From a virus: a DNA stretch of 64,000 nt. Positions 24,401 to 63,560 of the stretch are shown here, piece after piece. The position numbers were made by a program, and so were the translations under genes. Under the pieces are notes generated by a model. It made no database searches and had not been told where the DNA came from. It saw only the letters and a list, made by a program, of their open reading frames with translations. The stretch's first letter is position 1, and every line of letters starts with the position of its first letter. Location: IMG/VR virus record IMGVR_UViG_3300029704_000004. The stretch is one strand, 5' to 3'.

Positions 24401-27400
24401 ACTTTTGCAGTATATAAAACTCTTGCTGATATTGGTAGTAATTATGATACTGCTGTAGGTTTTATTATGCAACCTGCTATTACAAAAATTGTAAATGCTT
24501 ATAATGCTAATAAATCTATTTATTCAGATAAACATAATAAACCAATAGAAGAAGCTATTAGGTCATTAGGCAAAGAGATTCTTAATACTTATCATATTAA
24601 TACTGATAAAATGAATCTTGGTGAAATAGTTGCTAGAGTTAATGGATTACTTGGTACTAAGTATAGTTTAGATAAACATAATGATATTATTTTATCGCCT
24701 GATGAGTTAGCAAAGAGATTGCTTAATGATAAAAACCGCCCCGTAAAAGTAAGTATATATCAACATGATTGGGGTGTTCTTTTTGCTTATAATGATTTAG
24801 CTAAACTTTCTGATAAAATTGGTTCTACTGCAAGGGTTTGTAATCCTGATAGATTTGGTGCTAAACAAAGTATTTTCGCTACTCGTAAAGTATTTAATGA
24901 TATTGCAGATTTAATTGAAGATGAAAATCCAGCTTTAGTTGTTGGAACTTCTTCTATTGTTAATAGTATCTATGCAGGTTATGACCCTACTAAAGGTTTA
25001 AGAAGCTATATTACTAGTAATGCTAAAAGTGCATATCCTAGTCTTAATGCTTTCTTAAAATATGCTAGTGCTCCTTCTATTCTTGTAAATAGAATGTTGT
25101 TTGATACAGAACAAGATAATTTTAGAATAGCTAATAGAGCTATTGAAGTTATAAACGGTAGTAATAATGTTACTGAGAAAGATTATAAAGGTTTTACTCA
25201 GTATATTCTTAATGCTGCTTATAAACAAACAGATGCTGTTGTAAACAACTATACTTATGATGTAGAGAAGAAACAAACTATAGTAAATAAAGAATTTGAT
25301 GAAACGGATGAAGCTCTCAGAATTATGGGTTATGGTTGTACTCCTGATTTTACTTTTAATGTTAAAGATGTAACTAATCCTACACAAGAAGAAGTAAATG
25401 CTTGGAGTAAACTTAGTCCTGCTCAAAAAATTAGTTGGCTTAAATCTAATAGTGTTGATGCTGGTATATTCAATTATATAAATACTAATTTATTTAATGA
25501 ATATGAAATGAATAGAGATGGTCAAAGTCGTCAAACTATTCGTTTTAACGAAGATGCCGTTGATAATGAAACTGCTTATAATCTTTTTGATACTGCATTT
25601 AGTTCAGATAATCCATTAGTTAAACTTGCTGCTATGGATATGGTTAAGTATGCTTTTGTCGCAGAAGGTTTTAAAATAGGTAGAGGTGCTATTAATAAAT
25701 GTATTAAAAATACTGCTCTTCGTGATGAAAACACTTTTGTTCAATTTAATGGTGCTAGAACTAGTATTATTGCTCAAATTAAAGCTCAAGTAGATAATGC
25801 AGTTTCTAGAACTGATTTAGTTGAACAATATCTTAGAAGTGACCCAGGAGTTAGTAATGTTCCTCATAAATTTATGAATAAAAAATATAGTTCTATGTTC
25901 GAAACTGTAACTAGAGGAATGTACGAATTTAGTTTGGACGATAAAGATAATGCTATCGAATTTGGATTTGCTAGAGAAAGTAATGCAGAGTTCGTTCCAA
26001 TACAATTTAATAATTATATTTATATTACTAAAAAAGAAGGTAACGAAAGCGTTACTAGACTATATAAAATTGTTTCTCCTGACCTTGGTTCTGGTATAGG
26101 TTTTGCTTATCCATTAAATGGTTTGGAAGCTGGTGAAGATAGAGAAGTTAGTATTAATAATGCTAATAATAGTGTTCCTCTTCCAAGTTATTATGAAGCA
26201 GTTATTGATAACTTGATGAACAGTGAAGTTGCTGATTATACATTAGATGAATTAAATGAATTGTATAAGAAGCATGTTGCTACAACAAAAGTCAATAAAG
26301 TCAAAGCTGTTACACATTTTGATATAATGTCAGATGCTAATAATGATAATGGTGGAGCTAAAGATGCTATTAATAAGATTATTAAAACTTTCAACAATTA
26401 TGAAGGTAATAGAATCTTTATTCAAAATATGTATCTTTATGGTAAAACTAAATATGATTCATTTACTCCTCCTATTCATGTTGAAGGTGAAACTATTTCT
26501 AATGGTGGTGAACCTATTAGTATTAATGGAAACTTCTTATTTAGACGTGCTACTAAAGTAAGTATTGAAAGTCATAATATTCGTACAGGAGAACATATTG
26601 AGGAAAAACCTCAACTTGTTGAAATAGTTAGGGAAACTCCTATGGCTAGTTCTCGTGAAGAGGTAACTCTTGGTTCTGCAAGTTCTAAACTTGAACAAAG
26701 TCTTAGAACTACAACTGATTCTTTTGAAAAGAATATAGTAAAAGAACTTAATCGTAGAAGTGGTCTTGGAGATATAGAAGCTGGAAAACTTATGCGTCAA
26801 CTTCGTGGAGAAGGATTTGAACAAAGTACTAAAGGCTATAAAGAGTTTAAAGATAGCGTATTCTATAGTGGTTATGCTTATCTTAAACATAAAGTTAATA
26901 GTACTCTTGGAAAGTTTAGTCAATTCTACAGAGATGAAAATGGTAATTACTTTGCTATCAATAGTCCTGAAGTAATCAATGTTATTAAGAATAATCCTGC
27001 TTTACAAAGACAGTTCCTTGAAACACTTGCTGATGCTAATGCTATTGTTGATAAATTTGGAATTATTAATCAGATTAAAGCTGATGAAATTGAGAATCCT
27101 ACTTTGAAATTCTACATTGATGAAATGCAGAAGATGATTAAGGAACTCAGTAATAGTTCTATTATTGATGATGCAGAAGTTAAGTTTGGACTTGATTATC
27201 TTCAGAAACTTAGTAATGACCCTAATATTCAAAATGGTCTTATTAGTATATACGATGGTTTCCATTCTAGTGGTTGGCTTGATGCTTGGTTTGGTGATTT
27301 ACAAGAACAAGGTAACAGTCTTGTTCAAGTAGTTACTAGAAAAGTAATGGCTGATATTCGTGCTAAAGAAAGTCAAGCAAAAGATTTTGCTGTAGCTTTT

Positions 27401-30400
27401 GGAAAACATTTTGAAGACATTAAAGCTAGAGCTGCTAAAGTTGGTGTTTCAGTTGACATCAATAAGATATTTGATAAGAACGGAAATATAGTTCGTAATT
27501 ATACAGATAAATTTGTTGAAGATATTAAAGAACTTAAACGTAATGTAGCTAAAGCTAGAGTTAATGTTCAAGAGAATCCAATGGAATATATTCAAGCTAA
27601 ACATAAACTTGATAAGTTCCTTCTTGACCACGTTAATCGTGAATATGTTGATAGTTATTATCAGAAGCTTTATGATGAAGATGAATTTATTATTAATAAT
27701 CATCCTCAAATTTATTCTGAGTATGTAAAACTTCGAGAAGCTATTAGACAGATTAATAGTCGTAGAATTGATGGCGTTTTAAGTAAAGAGTTTGAAGATA
27801 AACTTGTCGAACTCAGAACTAAGATTAATGATTTAACTAGTCAATTTATTGGTAATGAGTATAAGCCAGCTTACGAATATGGTTTTCCTGGTACTGAACA
27901 AGCTCCTGATGGTAGCATTATTGTAACTAATCAAGAAGTTTATGATAATGCTCGTAAACAGTCTCTTAATGATGCCGTTCAATTAGACCAATATCTTAGA
28001 AGAATTAAAGATATTAAGGAAGAATATACTGCTAAAGAGGAGAAAGAGGGTTTCCATGATATGCTTGATAAAATGCTTAATATTATTGATAATGCTGAAG
28101 TTAGAGATTCTAACGGTAAAGTCACTACTCCAGCTAGTCAGCTTGACACTAATAAAGAGTATAAGAAAGCTAAAGAATGGATTGCTAATAATGCTCATTG
28201 GTCAGTAGATGATGTTCTTAAAGTTAGAATTGAAGATGCTTATAAAAAACTTGGTATTACTAATTTCAAAGCTTCTAAAGCTAGAGCATTTATTAAAGAT
28301 AAACTAGCTAAAGGTGAACAGATTTATGATGAGTTTGGTAATATTGATGCTAGTAAGTTTACTAATACAGAGATTGCTGCAATTAAAGAAGACGTAGAAC
28401 GTAATTATGGTACAACTAATACCTCTTTATTCTCTGATAGAAATCTTATAAATTCAGCTGAACCAACTAATGAAGCTGCTCCTAGTGAGTTCTTTAAAAT
28501 GCTTAATAGTGGCGGTATGACTAATCCTGAGTATCAAGAGATTATCACTAAGATTAATAATATTACTCGTAAATATTATAATAGTGCTGCTAAAATAGTT
28601 GAAACTTCTAAGATGAGTATCGAAGATTTGAAATCTCTTGGAGACCTTTACGATGAATTAGATAAAACTAAGAAACATAAAGGAAAAGGCAGTTACGATG
28701 CTTATCAAGCATATAGTAAATATGCTAAAGAAAATGTAAACGAACAAGCTTATTATTCTGAAGAAGATGAAGCTAAGAAGCGAACTGAACCAGAGTTCTA
28801 TACTTTATGGAAGCGAGTTAATGCTAGATATGAAGTTCTTAGAGATAAGAAAGGTAAAATAGTTATTGATGAAACAACTGGTAAAGCTGTTTATGATTTA
28901 ACTAAAGCACCAACACCTAATCATTGGCTTTATACTACTATTGCTCCTAATGATGCTTATTGGGAAGATTTAAACAAACGTGACCCTAAAGAAGCAGCCA
29001 GACAAAAGAAAGAAGTTGAGGATAAAACTAAAGCTCAAGAGTTCCTTAGTAATACTCTTGAAACTATTAATACTCCTCAATATTATAAAGCTAAAAATGC
29101 TGCTCTTGCAAAAGGTATCGCTTATTATAAAGAATGGTATAATAACAATCATGTTTACAATCCATTTACTCATGCTTACGAAGCTCTTCCTATTTGGAAT
29201 AGAACAAGAGTTATTCCTAGTATAGATAATGGTGAGTATTCTCCTAATTGGACTCAGACTACTCTTACTCCTAAAGCTCATTATAAGAATCCAAATTATA
29301 TTGAAGGCTATACAGATAATGAAAATTATAAAACTGTTGAAACTGATGATAAAAATGGAACTACTCATGTTCCTGGTTATGATAATAATTTAGGACTTAA
29401 TGAGTACGAGCAAGAAGCTAAACAATATATTCAAGATACTCTCATGAGTTTTGCTAAAACTGAAACTGCAAAGAGAGCTATTGCTAGTGGAATGGCTCCT
29501 CATAGAGCTAAGAAAGCAGAACATGACGCTAAATGGGCTGCAAAGCAAGCTAAAGAGTTTATTGGATTTAGTGATATGCTTCCTAGCGGTAAAGATAGTT
29601 GGTATGAGAAGATTGATTACTCTGAAGATAGAACTATCGATATGCCTATGCTAATGACTCAACTTAAAAATAAGGAGAGTGTTGACTTGGATAATATTCG
29701 TAGTACTAAACCGAAGAGAGAAACTTATGCTAGTGATGAAGCTTATGAAAAAGATTTAGAAGCTTATCAAAAACGTATTGATGAAGCAATTAAGAAAAAC
29801 GAAGAAATACATCAAAAACTTCTTGATAGAGATTATATTGGTGCTATTCAAGATTTCATTAGTGCTGCCGGACATTATAATGCTATTCAAGACAATAAAC
29901 AATTATTGTTCTATACACATAGAATGTTAGGTAAGATGAAAGCTTATGATACTAATCTTGGTTGGAATAACTTACGTAAAGATAGTCAAACTAGTACAAG
30001 TGATGAAACTTCTTATATTGAGAAAGTTGATACTCGTCTTCAAGAACAATTTGATAACTGGGTTCGTAGATTAGTTTATGACCAATATAAAATTCCTCAG
30101 AATAAGTTAACTAGAACTGCTAGTATGCTTCAAAGTTTTACTAGTGCTAAATTTATGATGTTAAACATTACGGGTGGTATTGGTAACATAACTGTTGGTG
30201 AATCTGCTATTGCTGGAGAATATATAGCTAAAGAGTACTTCACTCCTACAGGTTGGTTAAAAGGAAAGAACATGTGGAGACATGCTATTCCAAGCTTTAT
30301 TAGAGGTATGGCTAACGAAGATAGTACAACACTTGCTGATGCTCTTGTTAAGTTTATGAATATTGTTGACTTTGATGAAGTTAATAATAGACCTACAGTA

Positions 30401-31831
30401 CATCTTGATGCTGATACTGTTCTTAATAAGATTAGAGACTTTATGTATAGTCCTAATAGTATGGGTGAGCATTTCATGCAGAATGGTGCTATGTTTAGTA
30501 TGTTCTTTGATAATAGAATGGTTAAAGTTCCAGACGCTGAAAGTAATGGAAGACTTGGTTATGAAGCTATGACTTGGGAACAATATAAAAATAAGTTCCA
30601 CGAATATGCTATGAGAAATATTATTGGAGGTAATGAAGAACTTCTTAATAAATATGAAACATTTAAAAAGGATATTCTTGCTGACGATAATAAAAAGAAA
30701 GAGTATGTTTGGAATCGTAGAGATATTAATACTGAGTTTGCTAATCTGTATCTTACAAAGGAACAGAAGAAACAATTTATCACTGAAAAAAAGAAGCTTG
30801 AGAAAGAAGCTAAAGTTAAGTTTGAAGAACTTCCTACAGTAATGGACCAAGTTGACCTTAAAGATGGAAGACTTGCTTTTAAAGAAGGAAGTATTCTTGC
30901 TGAACTTCAAGCTAAATCTAAAGATAAAGAAGTAGGTGATGGTTATATGTTCCTTGGATATATGAAAGGCAAAGTTATTTCAGTTAATAAGAAGATTCAC
31001 GGAGTATATGATAAACTTGGTGCTGCTCAACTCGAAAAACAATGGTGGGGTTCATTAGCTATGCAGTATCATAAACATATTTATCCTGGAGTTATGAAAC
31101 ATTATCGTAGAAAAGGTTATTTCAATGAAGAAAGAGGAACTAAAGAAATAGGTTGTGCTCCTGCTTTATTTGATTTCCTTACTACTCCTATCAGAAAACT
31201 TAGATACGAAAAAGAAATGTCTGATGGTCAAGTAGAAGTATTGGAAAGTCTTCAGGTACTTCTTAAAGGTTATGCTGAGTTTGCAATGAATTTACAAACT
31301 AATTGGCAGTTAATGCCGAAATGGCAAAGAGCAAGTATTGAACGTGCTGCTGGTGATGTAGTTGGTGCTCTTGGTGGCATTTGTACTGCTCTTGCTGTTC
31401 GTTGTATTTGGGACGATGATGATTTAAAAAATAGTCTTTGGGGTAATCTTATGCTTTATGAAGCTGATGAGTTAACTACTCAGTCAATGATGTATAATAT
31501 GTTGTTCTTACCACAACAGTTTGACCAATTATGGTCTAGTCCTATTGCAGGTGTAACTGCTGGTAAAGATATAATGGCTGCTTGTAATAATATCGCTGCT
31601 TATGTAATGGATGACGATTATGACCCTAATTATACTAGCGGTCGTTATGCAGGTCAAAACAAGATTATTGTTAAACTTGGTCGTCAAATTCCAATTTACA
31701 GAAGTCTTAATAACCTTGCTACTCTTGATAAAGCTAATAGTTATTATAAGACTGGTGATAATCTTCTTACTTTGATTAATGTAAAAGATTGGGCTAATGA
31801 TATTAGAGGTACTAGTAGTCTAGAACGTTAA
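18422..31831 (+). CDS. giant virion-associated two-barrel DNA-dependent RNA polymerase-like protein
   Basis: Uninterrupted 4469-aa ORF. QTGSDFDIDSVYG places DFDID at 23177-23191 (residues 1586-1590), a DxDxD metal-binding signature of two-barrel RNAPs. Size and position match the giant RNAP genes of crAss-like phages. Confidence 0.75.
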   Translation: MANNCSLKFNETKVYTNLKAEVGNDDVLFNSLMSAVIDGSRPSGFNKEFETYYANNYGSIPNTNDESKEVATAIQNFYKNRNFNVNEHTTDSAFISDVKSKGYTSTAAKTCGIRTTGNLMLAFYHNDLIKGRLEEHAEDRKDNLANRVINRMLGAVATNILEARKVEATKEEIAKVRKQLMNTKSNDFVKLEDEVSKTTPQLRNQFATLKDMLSDKVKYFTQVIQTDDRLGEIRFKKDDDLSQQEADWSESFDIEDDDDLNLNNAADNASNNEKDTTTARWEDNGTKSDFMKDFSFAVRSYLSTIPKLSSTEVSADGKYQYDKSNPLGMVDYMDFKVVNSAIRGDIETTNIDAFLKKLEDIAKSNKEYAGLAYLANDLKKKPDFAYKLFQVYRRRTIRKQQVRIDDNSVSPTRSNNRADKLETLRINYLNDIKSTALNIMIEDTNDILGAIKTKIDDYKTLQKTKGFDLNKQALSADIINAIASRLKQYYPSLDKAAIERFARLNGKVDGKTPNIANNLTQLYGYLENTAKYANETLNNKRNLDNRFKEANKIKDKKAKKEALDSVREAYKQGYLSTNTKAYALELAKSLAPYSVVNIDSNSTNALGNQSADQINDSMITNFLNAVKATLTEQQKDGSKVSTELINYGKYKFQGVQYNLSGILMEHRDENGAVINYGLFYKDKDGNIQITNYARDMVNISLFDGAGNPNTKDNVLYSGMSKGDYVYTGFAQYFNTEQNPKMLMGDYFMRIPSDAPKNFVVHAPRYKVDGLFSKMHAIKNAKGEVIAKEVSVDDINENHPIVQQFRNIFKQELLDMVNFINIVFEVKENTETLEDGTVVDQRGRIVFNNDNTPMFKKGWGLDAESARRVFANYHIGKGHKHFIEKKGDGWAFNGLLFKDDRFVLTDYKTGTTTKYGDDLLKYLFPSLYGGARDGFIPFTTNANGEVELNLTADQEAMITRMVKGFVTDYSNNAITRMSEYKDLDINNLINEKNSIDFALNHRLMYIAFNDIFEGDTKFYKDTQTFLKRSKESQASGVPYGFVDTSLDLRENSTIIQGAFLNTPEVQSRLKAIGLDVQQKTKFNGITIKNTVRTSEECKVAKTYPDGKVEGEDGILVKDLVKNSKLTLEQARDLMGGPIMYDNNGKPKLNADGSYRRSGGFSNTTINDAQSYITFEEWIRRIAGRGQLNDYLPLIEAIQDESKEIPADLLKKFVQVQKNFYYDQYYDDKLNTIAPRQIKNAEFVLVPRFIRGTQLEQVYEAMKANKIDQLNTEETSKAGKARVLTIFDEKTGEVTEEHLKDFNNKAEDYREEYDYNHLYTQQETPQHMNAKNKAGIQIMKKILDNIDSNSPLHAYKEDFFNMYVANIKDSFNKLVDELKISLDEDGNIKFDESGNITGVDMQVFFDKLKDECMRLGLDSNMMDFVTLNASMPIAANGCPNPVMPTYLSNVVNKLESISQAMFNSAITRQELPGFHAAQITNVGFKATKDQVSYSKELKYHPNGERYIEIMLPASNFGFAKNADGTYKKSKEELLKELQDAGLDTLIGYRIPTEGKQSVCVMKVVGFLDDAQGSTIVVPDDWVSQTGSDFDIDSVYGIQYNTYIGRDGNIKRATWKDTVTENDWLNYVRRETGLRLSGIDNEKFENIKADAKASTKAEARDARKAEIAEIKNRFDEIESEAYFNLDDDTKEVIKLIHEKINEAYGPKPSKAKYQEQLEVEISTLTGRLEEFKDIYIEEELDAIKDYIEAKKQILNNVINGFELSDDFDYNAIKSEKIKSAIKAYKDEQLRLAKQIARSSRLLQFEAYKKKFDSDVIGNNTREARNNRLLDDMIHILQANESLEENLSRSNFESIIAARDKVMNPVVKEVREARSPYDFLDQAAYQEDVMSGAKLKAFSVTRDTFCSVCNTVHPHITDKYTIKVAYSKDKYNLEELQKRFEKVEETDEGYVVTHNTLGWTNDNKNVDGYILTAYSSQTTAHILDAVKEGAIPNVNDFTFAVYKTLADIGSNYDTAVGFIMQPAITKIVNAYNANKSIYSDKHNKPIEEAIRSLGKEILNTYHINTDKMNLGEIVARVNGLLGTKYSLDKHNDIILSPDELAKRLLNDKNRPVKVSIYQHDWGVLFAYNDLAKLSDKIGSTARVCNPDRFGAKQSIFATRKVFNDIADLIEDENPALVVGTSSIVNSIYAGYDPTKGLRSYITSNAKSAYPSLNAFLKYASAPSILVNRMLFDTEQDNFRIANRAIEVINGSNNVTEKDYKGFTQYILNAAYKQTDAVVNNYTYDVEKKQTIVNKEFDETDEALRIMGYGCTPDFTFNVKDVTNPTQEEVNAWSKLSPAQKISWLKSNSVDAGIFNYINTNLFNEYEMNRDGQSRQTIRFNEDAVDNETAYNLFDTAFSSDNPLVKLAAMDMVKYAFVAEGFKIGRGAINKCIKNTALRDENTFVQFNGARTSIIAQIKAQVDNAVSRTDLVEQYLRSDPGVSNVPHKFMNKKYSSMFETVTRGMYEFSLDDKDNAIEFGFARESNAEFVPIQFNNYIYITKKEGNESVTRLYKIVSPDLGSGIGFAYPLNGLEAGEDREVSINNANNSVPLPSYYEAVIDNLMNSEVADYTLDELNELYKKHVATTKVNKVKAVTHFDIMSDANNDNGGAKDAINKIIKTFNNYEGNRIFIQNMYLYGKTKYDSFTPPIHVEGETISNGGEPISINGNFLFRRATKVSIESHNIRTGEHIEEKPQLVEIVRETPMASSREEVTLGSASSKLEQSLRTTTDSFEKNIVKELNRRSGLGDIEAGKLMRQLRGEGFEQSTKGYKEFKDSVFYSGYAYLKHKVNSTLGKFSQFYRDENGNYFAINSPEVINVIKNNPALQRQFLETLADANAIVDKFGIINQIKADEIENPTLKFYIDEMQKMIKELSNSSIIDDAEVKFGLDYLQKLSNDPNIQNGLISIYDGFHSSGWLDAWFGDLQEQGNSLVQVVTRKVMADIRAKESQAKDFAVAFGKHFEDIKARAAKVGVSVDINKIFDKNGNIVRNYTDKFVEDIKELKRNVAKARVNVQENPMEYIQAKHKLDKFLLDHVNREYVDSYYQKLYDEDEFIINNHPQIYSEYVKLREAIRQINSRRIDGVLSKEFEDKLVELRTKINDLTSQFIGNEYKPAYEYGFPGTEQAPDGSIIVTNQEVYDNARKQSLNDAVQLDQYLRRIKDIKEEYTAKEEKEGFHDMLDKMLNIIDNAEVRDSNGKVTTPASQLDTNKEYKKAKEWIANNAHWSVDDVLKVRIEDAYKKLGITNFKASKARAFIKDKLAKGEQIYDEFGNIDASKFTNTEIAAIKEDVERNYGTTNTSLFSDRNLINSAEPTNEAAPSEFFKMLNSGGMTNPEYQEIITKINNITRKYYNSAAKIVETSKMSIEDLKSLGDLYDELDKTKKHKGKGSYDAYQAYSKYAKENVNEQAYYSEEDEAKKRTEPEFYTLWKRVNARYEVLRDKKGKIVIDETTGKAVYDLTKAPTPNHWLYTTIAPNDAYWEDLNKRDPKEAARQKKEVEDKTKAQEFLSNTLETINTPQYYKAKNAALAKGIAYYKEWYNNNHVYNPFTHAYEALPIWNRTRVIPSIDNGEYSPNWTQTTLTPKAHYKNPNYIEGYTDNENYKTVETDDKNGTTHVPGYDNNLGLNEYEQEAKQYIQDTLMSFAKTETAKRAIASGMAPHRAKKAEHDAKWAAKQAKEFIGFSDMLPSGKDSWYEKIDYSEDRTIDMPMLMTQLKNKESVDLDNIRSTKPKRETYASDEAYEKDLEAYQKRIDEAIKKNEEIHQKLLDRDYIGAIQDFISAAGHYNAIQDNKQLLFYTHRMLGKMKAYDTNLGWNNLRKDSQTSTSDETSYIEKVDTRLQEQFDNWVRRLVYDQYKIPQNKLTRTASMLQSFTSAKFMMLNITGGIGNITVGESAIAGEYIAKEYFTPTGWLKGKNMWRHAIPSFIRGMANEDSTTLADALVKFMNIVDFDEVNNRPTVHLDADTVLNKIRDFMYSPNSMGEHFMQNGAMFSMFFDNRMVKVPDAESNGRLGYEAMTWEQYKNKFHEYAMRNIIGGNEELLNKYETFKKDILADDNKKKEYVWNRRDINTEFANLYLTKEQKKQFITEKKKLEKEAKVKFEELPTVMDQVDLKDGRLAFKEGSILAELQAKSKDKEVGDGYMFLGYMKGKVISVNKKIHGVYDKLGAAQLEKQWWGSLAMQYHKHIYPGVMKHYRRKGYFNEERGTKEIGCAPALFDFLTTPIRKLRYEKEMSDGQVEVLESLQVLLKGYAEFAMNLQTNWQLMPKWQRASIERAAGDVVGALGGICTALAVRCIWDDDDLKNSLWGNLMLYEADELTTQSMMYNMLFLPQQFDQLWSSPIAGVTAGKDIMAACNNIAAYVMDDDYDPNYTSGRYAGQNKIIVKLGRQIPIYRSLNNLATLDKANSYYKTGDNLLTLINVKDWANDIRGTSSLER
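21193..21215 (+). repeat. GC-rich motif family, copy 5 (+), slightly divergent
   Basis: TTCTCTTTACGGGGGGGCTAGAG, translated SLYGGARD. Confidence 0.85.
24733..24756 (-). repeat. GC-rich motif family, copy 6 (-)
   Basis: Plus strand reads AAACCGCCCCGTAAAAGTAAGTAT, translated KNRPVKVSI. Confidence 0.85.
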
Positions 31832-31844: not shown

Positions 31845-31870
31845 ATAGCCGCCCCGTAAAAGGAATGTAT
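31845..31870 (-). repeat. GC-rich motif family, copy 7 (-), intergenic
   Basis: Plus strand reads ATAGCCGCCCCGTAAAAGGAATGTAT, starting 14 nt after the RNAP stop codon. Confidence 0.9.
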
Positions 31871-32026: not shown

Positions 32027-32097
32027 TGCTCTATGGTGTAATGGTAGCACTACAGATTTTGGTTCTGTCAGTGGTGGTTCGAATCCGCCTAGAGTAA
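32027..32097 (+). tRNA. tRNA-Gln (anticodon UUG)
   Basis: Hand-folded cloverleaf. Acceptor TGCTCTA/TAGAGTA (one G-U pair). D arm GTGT-AATGGTA-GCAC. Anticodon arm ACAGA-TTTTGGT-TCTGT with TTG at 32059-32061. Variable loop CAGT. T arm GGTGG-TTCGAAT-CCGCC. U1-A72 is typical of bacterial tRNA-Gln. No encoded CCA. Confidence 0.8.
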
Positions 32098-32251
32098 CAT
32101 ATCTTTATTCTGTTGTTTAACAGATATTATTTTATTCATAATTAAAGTTTTAATGTATAAAGTTAAGTGATGGCTGATAATGTAATCCAATGCTGAACTA
32201 GCGAGTTCATTCTATTCTCATTTTTAAATAAATAAATTAACGGGAAATGAA

Positions 32252-32289
32252 GCAGTAAGTAATCGTGATGATTATTTACTGCTTTTTTT
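32252..32289 (+). terminator. intrinsic terminator
   Basis: 13-bp stem GCAGTAAGTAATC / GATTATTTACTGC (one G-U pair) with loop GTGAT, followed by TTTTTTT. Confidence 0.8.
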
Positions 32290-34301: not shown

Positions 34302-34778
34302 TTAATCATTTATATTATTACGTTGTTCTAAAATATCTTTTCTAAGCTTTTTAATACTACCACGATAAATATAATTATGATTTATAATATAAGTATTTTT
34401 AGGAAGCATATTATTAGGAATCTTATCATAAAGACGACCTATTACATCTAGTTCTACTAAACGTTTTATTCCTTTACTTATGTTACTTTTATCACAATTA
34501 TAATATGCAGCAATATCTTTATTACTTAAAGATATATGATTAACACCATAAGGTATATTCTTAGCTATATACCTAACTACTTTACGGACATAAGTATTTT
34601 CTTTATCCATTATTTCAAGTAGCGCATCATCTATAATTGCTTTATGTTCCATATAATATATGGTTTTACAATATTCAGTACCATCATCAGCCTTATCTTT
34701 AATTTTAAGACCTTTGAAGTCTAGAGAATAGTTATAATCAATACTATCTCTAGAAAGTTTATTAATTACATTATCCAT
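34302..34778 (-). CDS. winged-helix DNA-binding protein, putative transcriptional regulator
   Basis: IAAYYNCDKSNISKGIKRLVELDVIGRL resembles a MarR/wHTH recognition helix plus wing. An operator-like repeat field lies directly upstream. Confidence 0.5.
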   Translation of the reverse strand: MDNVINKLSRDSIDYNYSLDFKGLKIKDKADDGTEYCKTIYYMEHKAIIDDALLEIMDKENTYVRKVVRYIAKNIPYGVNHISLSNKDIAAYYNCDKSNISKGIKRLVELDVIGRLYDKIPNNMLPKNTYIINHNYIYRGSIKKLRKDILEQRNNIND

Positions 34779-34791: not shown

Positions 34792-34885
34792 GTTTACTAG
34801 CTGTCGGCTAAGATACAAAAAAGTGGTGAAATATAACCACTTTTTCACAAAAATAGTTATATATAACCACTTTTAGCTAGTAAAC
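34792..34885. promoter_or_regulatory. operator-like repeat field in the leader of the wHTH gene
   Basis: 11-bp inverted repeat GTTTACTAGCT (34792-34802) / AGCTAGTAAAC (34875-34885). It brackets two direct copies of ATATAACCACTTTT (34831-34844 and 34861-34874, 30 bp apart) and one inverted copy AAAAAGTGGT (34818-34827). Confidence 0.5.
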
Positions 34886-34957: not shown

Positions 34958-34965
34958 CAAAGATA
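34958..34965 (-). promoter_or_regulatory. Bacteroidetes-type -7 box (minus strand TATCTTTG)
   Basis: Minus strand reads ATGCTTATCTTTGTAGCAGG, an extended match to the boxes at 47798 and 59616. Confidence 0.6.
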
Positions 34966-35022: not shown

Positions 35023-35047
35023 CATGCCTTTTACGGGGGGGCTAGAG
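35023..35047 (+). repeat. GC-rich motif family, copy 8a (+), left arm of intergenic hairpin pair
   Basis: CATGCCTTTTACGGGGGGGCTAGAG. Confidence 0.9.
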
Positions 35048-35091
35048 TGGTTCTAACATAATAACATGTATCATTAAACCATCTAGTTGTT

Positions 35092-35118
35092 GTACCCCCC
35101 CCCGTAAAAGGTATGTAT
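35092..35118 (-). repeat. GC-rich motif family, copy 8b (-), right arm of hairpin pair, C9 run
   Basis: Plus strand reads GTACCCCCCCCCGTAAAAGGTATGTAT and abuts the stop codon (35118-35120) of the upstream minus-strand gene. Confidence 0.9.
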
Positions 35119-35399
35119 CAAATATTAATCAAATCTTTATCTAGTGCATTTATCCATTCTTTAGCATCTTCTTTATTATCAAATACTAAAGCTTCTGGAA
35201 CATTAGGAACACCTTTATTTTCATCAATCATAATAGTGTAATTTACAACACTTTGATTATTATCAGCATAACTAGTAACTGCACTAATTGTACCAATAAA
35301 GAATGTACCACTAATATAACTGAATGCTAGTACCTCATCACCAACTTTGTAATGAGGCACTTTAAATTGATTTTCTTTTCCACTAAAATTAACTTGCAT
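35118..35399 (-). CDS. hypothetical small protein (KVGD, SH3/KOW-like pattern)
   Basis: 93-aa ORF. VPHYKVGDEVLAF resembles other small proteins in this arm. Confidence 0.55.
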   Translation of the reverse strand: MQVNFSGKENQFKVPHYKVGDEVLAFSYISGTFFIGTISAVTSYADNNQSVVNYTIMIDENKGVPNVPEALVFDNKEDAKEWINALDKDLINI

Positions 35400-36441
35400 A
35401 GGCTATTGCTTCATTAAGAGCTTTATTCATATTATTATTTGCTGAACCCCAAACAAGACTATTCATACGTTTCTCACCTTCAAGGTTTGCAACATTACAA
35501 TAGAATCCTGTAATTGCATTATAAGCACCCCAGGCAGTACCACAAATATCTTTTTGACCAATACCGTCAATATAATAATCCATCATATTATAAAGTTGAT
35601 TAGACTTTCTTGTACTAATCTCTACAGCATCAATCAAATGATAATCACGACTAATGAGACGTTTATAACCATGATTAGGGTCAACTTCATTAAGTTTAGC
35701 TATTTCAGCAGGAGTAAGTTGAAGTTTACAAATGTATTCAGCAACTTGGTCATCAGTCATTTTAATAGTAGCAAGATGACGATAAAGCTCTTGAGCATCA
35801 ATAGCATGAGAACAAGCAATCTTTAAAACTTGAGCACCAAGTTCAAGTTTCTCTTTTACAGATTTAGTATGACGAAGACGAATATGACAAGCAGCTTTAT
35901 CAAGAGCGCCATTAAGCATATTAGTACAAATAACTCTGACAGGAGTAATCATAATATCTACAGATGAGTTACCTGCATGTCCATTGCTGAACACAAGATA
36001 ATTATCTATAACATCATCTTTACCTACAGAAGTTTGTACTGGAAGCTTAGCACTAACATATACTTTTTCACCCATATTAAGACAAGCAGCTTTATCCCAA
36101 ATAGCTTTACCTTCTCCAATAGCATTATTAAAGAAATTGAAAGCGTCCATATTCTGAACTATTTCATACTTATCTTTAACAATACCCAATGGCATATTAA
36201 TATCTGTTCGATAAGTTGCAAAAGCATTAGGACACTCACGATAAATACTACCATCGTGAACAAAACTATCTTCTTCTACTTCATTATTACTACCAATTCT
36301 AAAAGGCATTTTACTTACAAGTTCACACTTTTGAACAGTCCAATCAAGTTTAGCACTTTTCATTACATCTTGTGCAGTTGCACAATCACTTACATCAGTA
36401 CCAAGTACCCATGGAAGTCCACCACGATTAAATTTACTCAT
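35389..36441 (-). CDS. DUF932-like phage/plasmid-associated protein
   Basis: 350 aa. N-terminal GGLPWVLGTDVSDCATAQDVMKSAKLDWTVQKCEL resembles the DUF932 / TIGR03299 family from memory only. Confidence 0.45.
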   Translation of the reverse strand: MSKFNRGGLPWVLGTDVSDCATAQDVMKSAKLDWTVQKCELVSKMPFRIGSNNEVEEDSFVHDGSIYRECPNAFATYRTDINMPLGIVKDKYEIVQNMDAFNFFNNAIGEGKAIWDKAACLNMGEKVYVSAKLPVQTSVGKDDVIDNYLVFSNGHAGNSSVDIMITPVRVICTNMLNGALDKAACHIRLRHTKSVKEKLELGAQVLKIACSHAIDAQELYRHLATIKMTDDQVAEYICKLQLTPAEIAKLNEVDPNHGYKRLISRDYHLIDAVEISTRKSNQLYNMMDYYIDGIGQKDICGTAWGAYNAITGFYCNVANLEGEKRMNSLVWGSANNNMNKALNEAIAYAS

Positions 36442-39448: not shown

Positions 39449-40099
39449 TTACTTTTTACGTTTAACAAAATCTTTTCCAGCTTCATAATCTTCGTGAGAT
39501 ATAGCAACTATATTCTCTTTATGTTCACTAGTAACAGGAATTTCTTTATCATCAGCAGATAAATTATATACATATCCATCTTTATCTTTACAAAGATGTT
39601 CAAAACCATAAGCAGATATAATTTCATTAGTTACATCTTTCTTACTGGTTTCTTCGATAAGAATAAGTTTATCTGTTTTAACAAGAGTAGAAATATCAAT
39701 GAAAGTTGACTCTACCCGCCCCGTAGAAGGTATTGTAGGTTCATGTCCATTATCACTAGCTTGCCAAGCTAATAACATATTACAATAATTACCTAAATCT
39801 TGAATAGTATCAAACATACTTTCATCTTCAACATTAGGATTACTGTAACCTTGAAAATCATCTTCAATAAGATGAACCAAACGATTAGCTTTATCATACA
39901 TTCTAGCTAGACCATATCTATAGCCTAGTTTATCACAACCTTTATTGAAAGCATTACCATAATCAGCATTCTTCTTAGCCATAAGACTAAGCATTTTGTT
40001 TTGTTGGTCACGTAATGCAACAACTTCAGGAGTTACAAGATGCTCTGGAACTACTCCATTAAGCACCGCTTTCCAATACTTTAAATCACTTTCTGTCAT
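39449..40099 (-). CDS. DUF1599-like (nucleotide-modification-associated) protein with C-terminal extension
   Basis: KNADYGNAFNKGCDKLGYRYGLARMYDKANRLVHL resembles the DUF1599 core. Carries motif copy 9. Confidence 0.45.
   Translation of the reverse strand: MTESDLKYWKAVLNGVVPEHLVTPEVVALRDQQNKMLSLMAKKNADYGNAFNKGCDKLGYRYGLARMYDKANRLVHLIEDDFQGYSNPNVEDESMFDTIQDLGNYCNMLLAWQASDNGHEPTIPSTGRVESTFIDISTLVKTDKLILIEETSKKDVTNEIISAYGFEHLCKDKDGYVYNLSADDKEIPVTSEHKENIVAISHEDYEAGKDFVKRKK
39710..39735 (-). repeat. GC-rich motif family, copy 9 (-), divergent
   Basis: Plus strand reads CTCTACCCGCCCCGTAGAAGGTATTG. Translated on the minus strand as IPSTGRVES. Confidence 0.8.
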
Positions 40100-41055: not shown

Positions 41056-41083
41056 ACATACCTTTTACGGGGCGGCTTTCATG
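41056..41083 (+). repeat. GC-rich motif family, copy 10 (+), intergenic
   Basis: ACATACCTTTTACGGGGCGGCTTTCATG. Confidence 0.9.
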
Positions 41084-41091: not shown

Positions 41092-41448
41092 TTATATGTT
41101 TAGTTGATATACTTCACCATCAACTTGATTATCTACAAGTTTAAGTTCAACATTAGTATCTTCAACTATAGAATTAAGAATAGAATCTTCGATAACTTCT
41201 TTAGGAATAGAAAATTTTGACCTACTATAATTATCTCTTTCAACTCTATAAAACTTGCCATCAGTATTACTCATACTAATAGCTAGAAAATAATCATTTC
41301 GTTTAATAGTTTCATTCCATCGTTTAAGAAACTTATAAAACATTCTAAACTTTATTTCTCTACTATATAATCTTCTAAACTTTGGTGAATACCAAGTTTT
41401 ATGTTTATCTAATTCTTCTTTTACATTATCATAAGCGTTTAAATTCAT
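41092..41448 (-). CDS. hypothetical protein
   Basis: 118-aa ORF. Confidence 0.55.
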   Translation of the reverse strand: MNLNAYDNVKEELDKHKTWYSPKFRRLYSREIKFRMFYKFLKRWNETIKRNDYFLAISMSNTDGKFYRVERDNYSRSKFSIPKEVIEDSILNSIVEDTNVELKLVDNQVDGEVYQLNI

Positions 41449-41456
41449 TATTGTAT

Positions 41457-42656
41457 CTACTTTTGAATATCAACTAACTTGCAATGAAAGGGTACATTCT
41501 TGATGCCCGACCTTTCGCGAAACTCACAAGTTGCAAGTTTACCAATAAAATCTTCTTTATGTTTAAGAATATATTCTTGTCTTGAATGGTCAAAATTACC
41601 AGTAGCTTCAAACAGTTCATCATTAATGTCATTTTGTAGAACAAACTTACAAAGATTAGTTCTAACTCCTTCAGGAACAACATCAACAATTTTAAACTTT
41701 GCATCATCAATTCGTTTATATTTAAGCATAGCTAAATTACGAGCACCAAATTGATAAGCAGAATTAACATCACGAACAATAAGACCTTCAAAACCAAGAC
41801 TTATAAACTTATCTCTGAATCTTGTAGCATCAGTAATATTACTAATATTAACATCAGGTAATAATATTAATTTACTCTTGTTATTAATATGCTGTTCGTA
41901 AGTATCAAAAGTATAACATAATCTACTTATATTATCAATCTTAAACTTACGTCTAGCTTCATAACTCATATTATCAATAGCAATATCATAACACCAATAC
42001 TGAAGAAGTAGATGTTGAGGAAGCTTTTCATTCTTAACAAAACTATTAATATCATTTACTTTATAACCAGGAATATAAAGTTCACCATCAAGGCAAGCTC
42101 CTTCTTCAATCATAGCATCAAGTAAATCATCTTTAATAGCTGGAAGAATTACTTCATCCATCCAAGTAAGTTTAGGAGTCCAATCAGTACCTTCTCTAGA
42201 ACGATAAGTAAGTCTAACAGGATTAAACATATCATTAGTTTGTTCAGCACCAACAATACATCTAACACCATTAATTTTATACTGACCTAAATAACTACGT
42301 TTATCAAAAGGTTTATTATCTTTAAGTACTTTTGCAAGCATTGGAAGAACAAAACCTTCATCAGTAGTATTATTCTTTGGGAGATAAGTATTAAGAAAGT
42401 TAAGAAGATTAACATCACCTTCTATTTTTAAAGGAGCATTATCTTTAAGTTCAGAAGCTTCTTTATATCCTTCTTTACGTTTAGCTTTAATACGAGATTC
42501 TATTTCGTTACCTCTACTAAGTTTAGCTTTAATTATTTCACTATGTTTATGTCCTCCTACAGCACCATAATGAATTATATATTCATTATTTTGACCATAT
42601 TCATGAATACCCCATGAAATAGGGTCACCTTTAGCATTTCTTTTAAATAGTATCAT
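41457..42656 (-). CDS. ATP-dependent DNA ligase
   Basis: Motif I YKINGVRCIV (KxDGxR-type adenylation lysine), GFEGLIVRD (motif IV-like) and AMLKYKR (motif V-like). Confidence 0.75.
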   Translation of the reverse strand: MILFKRNAKGDPISWGIHEYGQNNEYIIHYGAVGGHKHSEIIKAKLSRGNEIESRIKAKRKEGYKEASELKDNAPLKIEGDVNLLNFLNTYLPKNNTTDEGFVLPMLAKVLKDNKPFDKRSYLGQYKINGVRCIVGAEQTNDMFNPVRLTYRSREGTDWTPKLTWMDEVILPAIKDDLLDAMIEEGACLDGELYIPGYKVNDINSFVKNEKLPQHLLLQYWCYDIAIDNMSYEARRKFKIDNISRLCYTFDTYEQHINNKSKLILLPDVNISNITDATRFRDKFISLGFEGLIVRDVNSAYQFGARNLAMLKYKRIDDAKFKIVDVVPEGVRTNLCKFVLQNDINDELFEATGNFDHSRQEYILKHKEDFIGKLATCEFRERSGIKNVPFHCKLVDIQK

Positions 42657-49229: not shown

Positions 49230-50290
49230 TGTTCTTCTTCATTATCAAATAAATCATTATATAATCCAAAATTCTTCTTTAACAAAGATTTTCCACTGAG
49301 AGTTTTATTCTTTGAATTACCTTTCTGATTAGGACTTATTCCGAGCTTAATAGGATTAATAATCTTATAAGCTTCTTCATAATAATAAGCATAATCTATA
49401 TTACGCTCACTAATATCTTTATCATCAAGTAAATTAAGAATTTGTACTGGTTTTCCACTAGCTAAAACACTACGAGCACCAGTAGTTACGTGTTCTTTCA
49501 TAATCACAACTCCTTTAGTAGAAACATAAAATCTAACATGACGTTGACTATGTATATCTACTACTTTTCCGTCAACTACTTTTTGATAAACAACTTCAAA
49601 TTGTCTACCTACATTTTGAGTTTTACAGAAATCAAGAATATCTTTATGATTACGAAGCGTTTCCATTACAGATTTACCATGAGCAAAATACTCAAATACA
49701 GCAGTAGCTACAACTGGCATATCATATCCTTTTTTAAGGTCTTTGATATACTGTTTTGGGTCTAGTGCTCCTTTATACTCAATTTTATCGTTACTTTGAA
49801 TATCAAAATAGTTATTCACATTTAAGCTAACAAGCATCTTGTAATGTTCATCATCAGCAGACATCTTATTAGTTTCATTCCATTCTTTACAAATTTGATT
49901 ATAAACATCAACTTTGTCATAAGGAAGTTTTATAACGATACCATCAGTATTTGCACTAACTACATGTATTCCTGCTAATTCAAGAGATTCACAAAGAGTC
50001 ATTGTCATTAACTGACCATTAATTGTAACTCTCATTTGTGCAAGTCTATCATAAAGCCAGAAATTTTCATAGCCATACTTTCCGTAAATAGCATTGATTA
50101 CAATCTTCAATGCTTCTGCTGCAAGTTTATTATGAACTCCTGGTACTACAAAACCATCTTTATCGTCTGTATGTTTACATTTAACACGAGTTTGTTTAAA
50201 GTAATCTACCATTTTTGCAAACACCTTACGATTAAGATGTGCAGGTACTACTTCATAACTTATCATTATACTCGGATAATATGATGTATA
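49226..50290 (-). CDS. family B DNA polymerase, exon 2
   Basis: Begins YTSYYPSIM (second half of motif A DxxSLYPS). LKIVINAIYGKYG is motif B (KxxxNSxYG). VSANTDGIVI is motif C (DTD-like). Confidence 0.8.
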   Translation of the reverse strand, partial: YTSYYPSIMISYEVVPAHLNRKVFAKMVDYFKQTRVKCKHTDDKDGFVVPGVHNKLAAEALKIVINAIYGKYGYENFWLYDRLAQMRVTINGQLMTMTLCESLELAGIHVVSANTDGIVIKLPYDKVDVYNQICKEWNETNKMSADDEHYKMLVSLNVNNYFDIQSNDKIEYKGALDPKQYIKDLKKGYDMPVVATAVFEYFAHGKSVMETLRNHKDILDFCKTQNVGRQFEVVYQKVVDGKVVDIHSQRHVRFYVSTKGVVIMKEHVTTGARSVLASGKPVQILNLLDDKDISERNIDYAYYYEEAYKIINPIKLGISPNQKGNSKNKTLSGKSLLKKNFGLYNDLFDNEEEQ

Positions 50291-63519: not shown

Positions 63520-63542
63520 GAGAAGCATGCTTTCCTTTAGCT

Positions 63543-63560
63543 CCTTGACGGGGGAGTTCA
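63543..63560 (+). repeat. degenerate GC-rich motif relative
   Basis: CCTTGACGGGGGAGTTCA compared with CCTTTTACGGGGGGGTTCT (copy 1). Confidence 0.4.

Follow-up and report, generated by a model that had tools for sequence, protein, structure and literature searches.

The DNA analysed here (the window, 64,000 nt) belongs to a crAss-like phage that is about 96% identical to cr8_1 (Intestiviridae). A hairpin element is situated between two transcription units of its minus strand, and the features at this locus are as follows.

34302–34778, minus strand: gene for a RepL-like winged-helix protein, downstream of the hairpin (33% identity over 90 aa, E 7e-11, to a p-crAssphage-like protein)
34958–34965, minus strand: TATCTTTG, a match to the Bacteroidetes −7 promoter, 58 nt downstream of the hairpin in the transcript sense
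35023–35118, no strand assigned: hairpin element of two inverted motif copies and an inner stem-loop, recognised from sequence and from RNA and DNA folds, and kept in relatives
35027–35041, plus strand: motif copy CCTTTTACGGGGGGG, antisense to the genes, forming the second hairpin arm
35042–35086, no strand assigned: inner stem CTAGAGTGGTT / AACCATCTAG with an apical mini-hairpin
35097–35111, minus strand: motif copy in the gene sense, reading as the exact reverse complement of CCTTTTACGGGGGGG on the plus strand, with a G-run of 9 nt
35118–35399, minus strand: small ORF (93 aa, no family match), last gene of the DUF932 unit, its stop codon adjoining the element
35389–36441, minus strand: DUF932 protein gene (Pfam DUF932, E 4e-41), used as anchor for homologous spacers (44 related loci)

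The original prediction of a complete inverted motif pair at 35023–35118 was borne out by two perfect inverted 15-mers (CCTTTTACGGGGGGG). The copies face each other as proposed, but the gap of about 44 nt given for them does not hold: the 15-nt cores are 55 nt apart, and the full 26-nt arms, which add flanking pairs to the 15 perfect ones in the manner of MITE-type terminal inverted repeats, are 24 nt apart. The inner arms CTAGAGTGGTT (35042–35052) and AACCATCTAG (35077–35086) are paired with one bulge. The C-run is 9 nt long (35095–35103), as claimed; the corresponding G-runs in the hairpins of relatives vary from 6 to 9. The element was also correctly placed at a stop codon, since the TGA of the minus-strand ORF 35118–35399 occupies 35118–35120 and is directly followed by TACATA, the 5′ flank of the 35097–35111 copy.

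The Bacteroidetes −7 promoter has the consensus TAnnTTTG. The minus-strand octamer TATCTTTG, expected about 60 nt from the element, was found at 58 nt, and the homologous hairpins of cr8_1 and cr271_1 are followed by an identical octamer. The gene beyond it had been described as a wHTH regulator. It does encode a winged-helix protein, although RepL-like is a better description than regulator: its p-crAssphage-like homologue matches Pfam RepL at 1e-8, and its own Pfam HTH matches are below threshold. In cr8_1 this gene is replaced by an unrelated one while the motif is the same, so the adjacent RepL-like protein was judged an unlikely reader of the motif.

Folding of both strands, as RNA and as DNA, predicted the long interrupted stem that had been anticipated. 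The RNA folds have energies of −43.3 and −44.8 kcal/mol (z −6.0 and −6.25; 0 of 200 shuffles matched the hairpin energy), and the DNA folds −23.9 and −24.8 kcal/mol (z −6.1 and −6.8). The lower stem is about 19 bp and the upper stem about 10 bp. Rfam covariance models found a tRNA as their sole match in the window, leaving the hairpin without a family, and gave no match in the p-crAssphage-like genome LMMB and, for the cr8_1 composite region, nothing better than noise; ARAGORN likewise gave no match, and a tRNA-like or other known RNA family was rejected for the hairpin. The GenBank record of cr8_1 is cut inside the homologue of this element, a caution that G-run hairpins break assemblies.

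A bidirectional terminator was among the functions first proposed, and the GC-rich stem directly past a stop codon fits a Rho-independent terminator of the ordinary kind. That reading failed on several counts and is now highly improbable: a T/U-run follows the stem on neither strand, no plus-strand gene at 35023–35118 is in need of termination, and the terminator scan made no call at the element. Between 30 and 46 kb the scan returned 13 terminator-like sites against 4.1 expected, with canonical hairpin and T-run sites at 44821–44786, 33097–33068, 32367–32338, 45898–45870 and 32249–32285.

A different role in RNA is possible, although rather unlikely. The transcript would carry an intercistronic stem-loop, an interrupted helix of 26–30 bp after the stop codon, acting as a site for RNase III-type processing, a barrier against 3′ exonucleases, or a signal for factor-dependent termination or ribosome stalling, and it would shield the DUF932 unit from the promoter that serves the RepL-like/dUTPase genes. 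The strong fold and the start of the sense copy directly past the stop codon agree with this, as does the intercistronic position of at least about 20 bp of double-stranded RNA, a feature of RNase III sites. In five genomes the inverted pairs lie in short intercistronic spacers, just past stops or before starts, and the distance between their arms, which ranges from 27 to 212 nt, fits a hairpin better than a rigid protein dimer. On the other side, the stem has no T-run, and canonical terminators are used elsewhere. The RNase III hairpins of T7 are intercistronic elements of long operons, with stems of about 20–30 bp, internal loops and sequence common among sites; all are local, intergenic and in one orientation, with no solo half-sites in genes. 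The crAss hairpin is likewise an intercistronic stem of similar length with internal loops, but its motif also occurs as solo copies inside genes and in both orientations.

Comparison with relatives, using the DUF932 gene as anchor, recovered the inverted pair in the homologous spacer at 39 of 44 loci, and it is also present in cr271_1 and ctcc615, so that three genera are represented. The five loci without a recognisable pair are the most divergent (≤56% identity). The inner sequence is unrelated among the types designated A, B, L190, L210 and L217, and pairing is nevertheless retained. Double compensatory changes affect three type-A pairs and one type-B pair, the inner stem of cr8_1 shows a U-A to C-G double change, and in the sense transcript G.U occurs in about 15 pair columns compared with 5 for A.C. 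The retained pairing of replaced sequences and the excess of G.U over A.C favour selection on an RNA fold, which would be secondary if the motif is primarily a DNA signal. Within types, however, covariation is limited, and the motif in any case constrains the arms, and the sense and antisense variants of crAss002 would give C.A rather than G.U in sense RNA.

The same comparison bears on the suggestion that the element is a mobile unit of MITE, REP or Correia type, with the solo copies as single-end remnants. Its 96-bp length, its arms of about 26 bp and the many repeats of the motif resemble such units. The proposed search for empty sites found none among the 44 anchored loci, and the same site is occupied in three genera. 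No target-site duplication was seen either: the flanks, ending in TATTCATG on one side and beginning with TATGTATC on the other, are parts of the palindrome and not a direct duplication. The window holds one such unit only, and the other two pairs of cr8_1 have unrelated interiors and the opposite arrangement. With solo positions that are kept down to 39% protein identity and a motif that is absent from host genomes, mobility was largely refuted and is extremely unlikely. REP, BIME and REPIN sequences and Correia (nemis) elements are short repeats with inverted doublets that form hairpins at gene 3′ ends, with alternating orientation and orientation-dependent sequence flavours, and Neisseria Correia elements have terminal inverted repeats of about 26 bp that are cut by RNase III. 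All are strictly extragenic and mobile through RAYT or another transposase, vary in presence by strain and leave target duplications. The crAss inverted doublets similarly form hairpins near gene 3′ ends, but they stay at the same places from genus to genus, ORFs contain 11 of the 16 copies of the window, no duplication is seen, and the annotations of the five annotated genomes name neither a RAYT (IS200/IS605-like) nor any other transposase. What occupies the spacer is a double site that is fixed and non-mobile, two copies face to face in non-coding DNA.

The motif is dispersed through the whole window. Allowing up to three mismatches, the 15-mer occurs 16 times, against 0.08 expected. Besides the two hairpin arms, the following copies were located.

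5482–5496, plus strand: solo copy, sense, in ORF 5132–8680
7543–7557, minus strand: solo copy, antisense, in ORF 5132–8680
14960–14974, plus strand: solo copy, sense, in ORF 11333–18349
17267–17281, minus strand: solo copy, antisense, in ORF 11333–18349
21195–21209, plus strand: solo copy, sense, in the 4469-aa ORF 18422–31831
24736–24750, minus strand: solo copy, antisense, in ORF 18422–31831
31849–31863, minus strand: solo copy, antisense, 18 nt past the stop of the giant ORF; position kept in cr271_1 and ctcc615
39716–39730, minus strand: solo copy, sense, in ORF 39449–40099
41061–41075, plus strand: solo copy, antisense, intergenic, 17 nt past a stop codon
43933–43947, minus strand: solo copy, sense, in the primase gene; position kept in cr271_1
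48715–48729, plus strand: solo copy, antisense, in the SNF2-type helicase gene; position kept in cr271_1 and ctcc615
52949–52963, minus strand: solo copy, sense, in the uracil-DNA glycosylase (UDG) gene; core kept to 39% protein identity
53622–53636, plus strand: solo copy, antisense, intergenic, 35 nt ahead of the next start codon
56720–56734, minus strand: degenerate copy CTTCTCTACGGGGAGGCTAGA (15.8 bits, against 26–49 bits for the others)
60649–60663, plus strand: solo copy, antisense, in ORF 60519–60836

In this genome the consensus of the motif reads tACATa-CCTTTTACGGGGSGG-CTaga, a strand-asymmetric sequence with a conserved span of about 20 nt and about 34 bits. Of the 19 ACGGGG hexamers in the window (3.5 expected), 17 lie within motif copies. 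The 11 copies inside ORFs use all three frames and both orientations, and the codons that the motif forces are the rarest (ACG, 1.8% of Thr codons; GGG, 1.9% of Gly codons). Orientation relative to genes is balanced, with 7 sense and 9 antisense copies in the window and 12 and 14 in cr8_1. The pair at 35023–35118 is the only inverted pair in the window, and no copy overlaps a TAnnTTTG promoter.

An RNA stem-loop does not explain the 11 intragenic copies. The best local pairing partners of these solos are no better than background, so the idea that they are halves of local hairpins was rejected; in their two orientations they represent different RNAs, and neighbouring sense and antisense copies would give only about 12–14 bp with a mismatch. 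A general module of motif plus downstream hairpin was also rejected, since the raw significance of its folding energy disappeared once the G-run was excluded and composition controlled.

crAss002 and a p-crAssphage-like genome are among the five Intestiviridae lineages in which related motifs were found, with the family-wide core YYYYYY-TAY-GGGGG. Every Intestiviridae genome examined carries a lineage-specific variant (TCTTCTACGGGGGAGCT, CCTTCTACGGGGGwGsT, CTCCTTTAYGGGGGAA, CATCCTCYACGGGGRGT), and the signal is common to at least three subfamilies. Copy numbers range from 17 to 29 per genome: 26 in cr8_1 (92.6 kb), 19 in ctcc615, 29 in crAss002 and 29 in LMMB, while in cr271_1 all 17 ACGGGG hexamers are motif copies. 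The UDG (46) and DUF932 (44) locus sets were fetched by protein, independent of the motif; at the UDG loci, YTACGGGG is kept in 45 of 46, down to 39% identity. These comparisons indicate that the solo copies are selected at the nucleotide level inside genes, at positions that are old and fixed. The original view of the hairpin as the full-length version of the solo copies is not supported, given their ancient, fixed positions and their want of a local partner above background.

A search of 596 Gb of genomes with a motif 18-mer gave 17 scattered single matches, which is the chance level in bacterial genomes, and an origin from the host or a host repeat was rejected. The identity profile between the window and cr8_1 showed no association of motif sites with mosaic or recombination breakpoints, and the motif was rejected as such a breakpoint. 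A mini-hairpin between the Y-run and the G-run of the motif strand (Y5-[UACG]-G5) is predicted in four lineages but not in that of the window (−1.6 versus −1.9 kcal/mol for shuffles), and it was rejected as a conserved RNA structure. In two lineages sense and antisense copies differ at one position (Fisher 0.004 and 0.009), which could reflect a role linked to transcription. No published description of the signal was found by text-string search of 8 million papers, and it goes unmentioned in the paper on the crAss002 genome.

The copies are spaced at about one per 3.5–5 kb, irrespective of coding. In all five genomes the gaps are more even than under random placement (CV 0.42–0.63 versus about 0.93; P from <0.0002 to 0.046), an evenness regardless of gene boundaries that an RNA stem-loop does not account for. 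Orientation tends to alternate along the genome: the giant ORFs each have a sense copy and then an antisense copy, and successive copies change orientation in 24 of 29 steps in crAss002 (P 2.7e-4), 20 of 26 in cr8_1 (P 4.7e-3) and 20 of 29 in LMMB (P 0.03). Alternation is not significant in cr271_1 (12/17) or ctcc615 (12/19); the sum over the five genomes is 88 of 120, the sites sharing ancestry and the genomes being non-independent. All 12 pairs less than 250 nt apart are inverted. Periodograms, signed or unsigned, gave no significant peak and a strict periodic lattice was rejected, although gaps of 3.0–3.9 kb are over-frequent. The alternation and the inverted close pairs could result from loss of direct repeats by deletion, and the even spacing and alternating polarity point to a DNA-tracking process.

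Duplex binding by a single phage protein (a global repressor, roadblock or architectural protein), with solo copies as single sites and the hairpin as a bivalent inverted site, is an unlikely alternative whose appeal lies in the motif itself. It is asymmetric, carries about 34 bits and has many copies per genome; single and inverted forms coexist, and the private variant of each lineage suggests concerted evolution with a recognising protein. An even distribution would fit a chromatin-like role, and the protein-binding or cruciform site of the original prediction is still tenable. The C1 operators of phage P1 (monovalent and bivalent) and the stoperators of mycobacteriophage L5 are asymmetric sites of 13–17 bp with 14–30 copies per genome; P1 has single and inverted double sites, and in both systems the sites co-evolve with their binding protein. 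These sites overlap promoters or are located in short intergenic gaps, and stoperators have one orientation relative to transcription. The crAss motif is similarly asymmetric and multicopy, in single and inverted forms, but half of its copies lie in ORFs, none lies on a promoter, and its orientation is balanced and alternating. Stoperator-like bias relative to transcription is absent, duplex binding does not predict alternation, and the two sites of a pair stand at variable distances. The nearest candidate protein, the RepL-like one, is exchanged in cr8_1, and virion IHF/HU-like proteins occur also in crAss001, which has no motif.

crAss001 shares virion, vRNAP and IHF genes with the motif-bearing phages, and no homologues of PolB, RecT, the SNF2 helicase, the SSB-like protein, DUF932 or ligase were detectable in it. 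This one negative genome weakly links the motif to the replication–recombination module. It also bears on the motif as a promoter or start signal of the virion RNA polymerase, which would be a small DNA hairpin of the kind found in the early promoters of N4. The promoter specificity of crAss vRNAP is unknown and the enzyme transcribed only single-stranded DNA in vitro (preprint 10.1101/2020.03.07.982082), and the mini-hairpin is possible on the motif strand in four lineages. This was rejected as very unlikely: copies occur equally in early, middle and late regions and on both strands, the mini-hairpin is not predicted in the lineage of the window, and crAss001 has the vRNAP without the motif.

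The best explanation, advanced tentatively, is that the motif is a strand-polar DNA signal for a replication–recombination module of PolB/RecT type, and the hairpin a two-way double site. The mechanism we infer is that the signal would be read on DNA, a single strand at a time, by a DNA-tracking enzyme of this module. Because such a reader tracks DNA one strand at a time, a copy in each facing would be needed within a few kb everywhere. The element at 35023–35118 would provide the two polarities together, in the one spacer nearby; its folding would be partly a by-product of two opposed copies placed side by side, and the folded form may have a further use in RNA, as a stem-loop where the operons meet.

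The leading specific candidate within this class is a phage-private Chi-like site, which would tame a helicase-nuclease and seed RecT-type recombination; taken by itself, it is a doubtful proposal. Like Chi, the motif is strand-specific, over-represented, evenly dispersed and independent of coding, but its conserved span of about 20 nt exceeds the 5–8 nt typical of such sites, which are recognised by a helicase-nuclease and are frequent in the host as well, whereas the motif 18-mer is at chance level in 596 Gb of genomes. Chi (E. coli GCTGGTGG, read by RecBCD) and KOPS (read by FtsK) are host-owned sequences of 5–8 nt whose distribution is skewed with replication direction. The crAss signal resembles both in being G-rich, strand-asymmetric and dispersed irrespective of coding, and for Chi and KOPS orientation matters and the function depends on coverage of the genome. 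It differs in its length, in being phage-private with lineage variants, in its alternation and in its absence from bacterial genomes. The motif-bearing phages also encode a Gam-like nuclease inhibitor, an observation that counts against the Chi-like reading.

Other members of the same class would be a site-specific nick signal or a priming signal. T5, phiKMV-like phages and tf have single-strand interruptions at several places, strand-specific nicks with a phage-specific consensus of up to about 20 nt; these affect one strand only and are not evenly spaced. The crAss signal is likewise phage-specific, about 20 nt long and present at multiple places, but occurs on both strands and evenly spaced. 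We know of no nick shown in crAss-like phages.

crAss-like phages are the most abundant human gut viruses, and their replication, recombination and persistence are poorly understood. The motif, a cis-acting signal of at least three subfamilies, is present in p-crAssphage-like genomes as well as in the cultured crAss002, and it overrides codon choice inside essential genes. It is usable as a lineage signature for contig classification, and because crAss002 grows in culture the question of its function is directly testable. A broader proposal, speculative and improbable as it stands, is that the crAss-like phages of the Intestiviridae have a genome-wide ‘self’ code of their own, a Chi-like polar signal of about 20 nt placed every 3.5–5 kb in alternating orientation and read by their own helicase-nuclease/RecT machinery. 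If so, the code would allow the phage to tell its own DNA from that of the host and to rescue breaks from host defences, and paired copies such as that at 35023–35118 would be its two-way sites.

The window belongs to a crAss-like phage with about 96% identity to the uncultured phage cr8_1 (MT774384.1; Crassvirales, Intestiviridae, Obtuvirinae, Fohxhuevirus). Plus strand genes for giant virion and ejected proteins occupy nt 1–31831, and the minus strand genes of the replication-recombination module occupy nt 32795–64000. In the direction of transcription, the order around the hairpin is DUF932 gene, small ORF, hairpin (35023–35118), a 58-nt spacer, TATCTTTG, an AT-rich stretch, the AAAAGTGGT/ACCACTTTT palindrome with a repeat, gene 34302–34778 and dUTPase.

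Features of the hairpin and its surroundings
35389–36441, minus strand: DUF932 gene (Pfam 4e-41)
35118–35399, minus strand: small ORF
35118–35120, minus strand: stop codon of the small ORF
35097–35111, read on the plus strand: exact reverse complement of CCTTTTACGGGGGGG
35095–35103: C-run of 9 nt
35077–35086: inner arm AACCATCTAG
35042–35052: inner arm CTAGAGTGGTT
35027–35041, plus strand: motif core CCTTTTACGGGGGGG
34958–34965, minus strand: promoter-like octamer TATCTTTG, 58 nt from the hairpin
32027–32098, plus strand: tRNA-Gln, anticodon TTG

The octamer fits the Bacteroidetes −7 consensus, TAnnTTTG. Given the position of the stop codon, the 5′ flank of the motif (TACATA) follows immediately after TGA. 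The original prediction had described the inverted 15-mer pair, the 9-nt C-run, the adjoining stop codon and the nearby octamer correctly, and was imprecise only in placing the copies about 44 nt apart: the cores are separated by 55 nt, and the 26-nt arms by 24 nt. The proposed folding was borne out, with a long interrupted stem predicted on both strands, as RNA (−43.3 and −44.8 kcal/mol; z −6.0 and −6.25) and as DNA (−23.9 and −24.8 kcal/mol; z −6.1 and −6.8). Close relatives differ in the length of the sense-arm G/C-run (35095–35103), which ranges between 6 and 9 nt. The ends of the cr8_1 GenBank record fall exactly within this run, with a 55-nt terminal overlap, and probably represent an assembly break at a homopolymer hairpin, not a physical end.

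The gene downstream had been called a wHTH regulator. HTH matches of its product are below threshold only, while it shows 33% identity (E 7e-11) to a p-crAssphage-like protein that itself matches Pfam RepL at 1e-8, so RepL-like is the better label. An unrelated gene takes its place in cr8_1, yet the same hairpin and motif are present. The palindrome AAAAGTGGT...ACCACTTTT, together with a third copy of AACCACTTTT, occupies 34812–34880, after the TATCTTTG promoter and ahead of the RepL-like gene, and resembles operator or iteron repeats; ahead of its different gene, cr8_1 carries a palindrome of another sequence (TTGGGTAAC...GTTACCCAA).

Elsewhere in the window, the tRNA-Gln has its own TATCTTTG octamer upstream, about 85 nt past a motif copy at 31849; its anticodon is ordinary, so it is not a suppressor. 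Compared with cr8_1, an insertion of about 1.09 kb (50290–51381) splits the DNA polymerase (PolB) gene into ORFs 51379–52590 and 49226–50293. It bears ORF 50323–51087 (minus strand), with a GIY-YIG endonuclease domain (Pfam E 4e-9), and is probably an intron or a free-standing homing endonuclease. At window position 41448–41457, cr8_1 has an additional small ORF and a putative HNH endonuclease (record 85628–86299), both missing from the window, making this a second homing-type presence/absence between 96%-identical genomes.

Relatives were picked via the neighbouring DUF932 protein (44 loci), so that their selection was independent of the motif. The homologous spacer carries an inverted pair in 39 of them, and the remaining five rank as the most divergent loci (≤56% identity). 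Motif copies form the arms in every case; the interiors are unrelated among at least five types: A (window-like), B (21 distinct sequences), L190, L210-like and L217. The same site is occupied in other genera, by a degenerate sense copy and a perfect antisense copy followed by TATCTTTG in cr271_1, and by a pair (16640/16536) at the 3′ end of the DUF932 gene in ctcc615. Two more pairs in cr8_1 (37722/37793 and 41886/41925) have unrelated interiors and the reverse arrangement, with TACATA ends toward the loop. No target-site duplication was found in the sequence flanking 35023–35118. This conservation of position, the missing duplication and the dissimilar cr8_1 pairs exclude the suggested MITE. 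The idea of a bidirectional terminator was not supported either: the hairpin has no T-run and was not called by a terminator scan that detected canonical hairpin-plus-T-run structures nearby (44821–44786, 33097–33068, 32367–32338, 45898–45870 and 32249–32285).

Double compensatory changes occur in 3 of 35 predicted pairs in the type A alignment (for example, inner stem U-A to C-G in cr8_1) and in 1 of 22 in type B. One-sided changes on the sense-transcript strand gave G.U in about 15 pair columns versus A.C in about 5 (hand count from the type A and B tables). This is modest evidence that the fold may have a role at the RNA level, weakened because the motif itself constrains both lower arms. 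For the hairpin itself, the main rival is an RNA stem-loop between cistrons that would serve processing, stabilisation or termination. It would best explain the conserved inner pairing and the siting at stop and start codons, but accounts for neither the solo (unpaired) intragenic copies nor the even spacing; we find it rather doubtful.

Allowing up to three mismatches, the 15-mer occurs 16 times in the window (0.08 expected). A weight matrix places these 16 copies at 26–49 bits, cleanly apart from all else, with one degenerate copy at 56720. Eleven of the 16 are within ORFs, where they occupy every reading frame and run both with and against the gene, and no intragenic window copy has a local inverted partner above background. 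Among 46 uracil-DNA-glycosylase (UDG) loci fetched by protein, ...YTACGGGG... is retained at the same codons in 45, down to 39% protein identity, and the distant loci have no other ACGGGG in 3.5 kb. Since ACG and GGG are rare in this genome (1.8% of Thr and 1.9% of Gly codons), this site is maintained as nucleotide sequence. Of the 19 ACGGGG hexamers in the window (3.5 expected), 17 are within motif copies. Solo copies had been taken for partial versions of the hairpin, a view contradicted by the lack of local partners and the persistence of the UDG copy; they are the same signal as the hairpin arms, not remnants. At 63542–63590 (plus strand), near the divergent intergenic region towards the window's right end, are two sequences with weak resemblance to the motif, CTCCTTGACGGGGGAG and TCTTAACGGCGGGGG.

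Motif variants and copies in the comparison genomes
cr8_1, Fohxhuevirus (Obtuvirinae): CCTTTTACGGGGSGGCT, 26 copies
cr271_1, Hacihdavirus (Obtuvirinae): TCTTCTACGGGGGAGCT, 17 copies, being every ACGGGG in the genome
ctcc615, Wotdevirus (Obtuvirinae): CCTTCTACGGGGGwGsT, 19 copies
crAss002, Churivirinae, cultured on B. xylanisolvens: CTCCTTTAYGGGGGAA, 29 copies
CrAssphage LMMB, Carjivirus, p-crAssphage-like: CATCCTCYACGGGGRGT, 29 copies

Motif positions common to several genera are in UDG (sense), primase (sense) and SNF2 helicase (antisense), in pairs within giant ORFs, and right after the stop codon of the largest ORF. The G-run motif was not found in crAss001 (Steigviridae), where tblastn also detected no PolB, RecT, SNF2 helicase, SSB-like protein, DUF932 or ligase, all common to the motif-bearing genomes; virion, vRNAP and IHF-like genes are common to both. 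This is a weak pointer to a tie with the replication-recombination module, crAss001 being a single negative genome. A small palindrome-like sequence, CTCCTTCTGGAG, is mildly over-represented in crAss001, and CTTCTGGAG has 13 copies in 44 kb. A host-repeat origin was rejected, as the 17 scattered single matches of the 18-mer across 596 Gb of bacterial and archaeal genomes are no more than chance would give. A literature search with motif strings returned nothing relevant, and the crAss002 genome paper does not mention the motif. A preprint on the crAss vRNAP describes early promoters without a common motif, and middle and late genes with host-type promoters (10.1101/2020.03.07.982082).

After merging close pairs into loci, each of the five genomes showed gaps between loci that were much more even than under random placement (CV 0.42–0.63 versus about 0.93; P 0.0004 for cr8_1, 0.046 for cr271_1, 0.0002 for ctcc615, 0.006 for crAss002 and <0.0002 for LMMB). 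There is no strict lattice in these five Intestiviridae genomes, nor was long-range periodicity detected. Neighbour distances of 3.0–3.9 kb, a range chosen post hoc, are over-frequent (22 of 91; about 8.5 expected), and same-orientation neighbours are frequently about 7 kb apart. Orientation alternates in 24 of 29 steps in crAss002 (P 2.7e-4), 20 of 26 in cr8_1 (P 4.7e-3) and 20 of 29 in LMMB (P 0.03), and non-significantly in cr271_1 (12 of 17) and ctcc615 (12 of 19), these tests not being independent given common ancestry. All 12 pairs less than 250 nt apart are inverted and none direct. Sense and antisense counts are balanced (12:14, 10:7, 10:9, 15:14 and 16:13), and intergenic DNA holds about half of the copies despite dense coding. 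Deletion between direct repeats might, as a by-product, have produced both the alternation and the exclusively inverted close pairs; that would weaken the argument from polarity.

Variants differ by orientation at one position in cr8_1 (sense GGGGGGG, antisense GGGGCGG, with G against C after GGGG; Fisher 0.004) and crAss002 (sense TAC, antisense TAT; Fisher 0.009), with no such difference in three other lineages. Operators of the P1 C1 or stoperator kind, bound by a protein regardless of orientation, would account for lineage-specific variants but not for locations in ORFs, absence from promoters or alternation, and we consider them unlikely. In some lineages, overlapping GCGNAGC units that form GC-rich runs, or hairpins with a GNRA cap (e.g., AGCGGAGCGAAGCGAAGCGG and GGAC-GAAA-GTCC), come after several mostly sense copies, some within ORFs: around 5673, 28370, 45150, 58935, 94531 and 96729 in LMMB, 4215, 47845 and 86217 in crAss002, and 62561 in cr8_1. 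Neither type had an Rfam match.

Coverage that is even irrespective of gene boundaries, combined with polarity sensitivity, suggests a signal that would be read on DNA by something travelling along it, each genome region then requiring a copy in each direction. Such a need would oblige ORFs of 7–13 kb, which offer no spacer, to bear copies at a cost in codon choice, and would often place two opposed copies in one spacer. We favour this class of signal tentatively; it includes Chi-like sites, priming signals and nicks of the strand-specific kind seen in T5, phiKMV and tf. Chi of E. coli is G-rich, strand-polar and independent of coding, and occurs about once per 4.5 kb. It is the closest analogue among known mechanisms, although the present signal would be phage-private and much longer; taken singly, we consider the Chi-like version unlikely.

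The hairpin is a double site belonging to a genomic signal that spans the family and has, as far as we found, no previous description. Its function is inferred, and with crAss002 in culture is open to direct testing.
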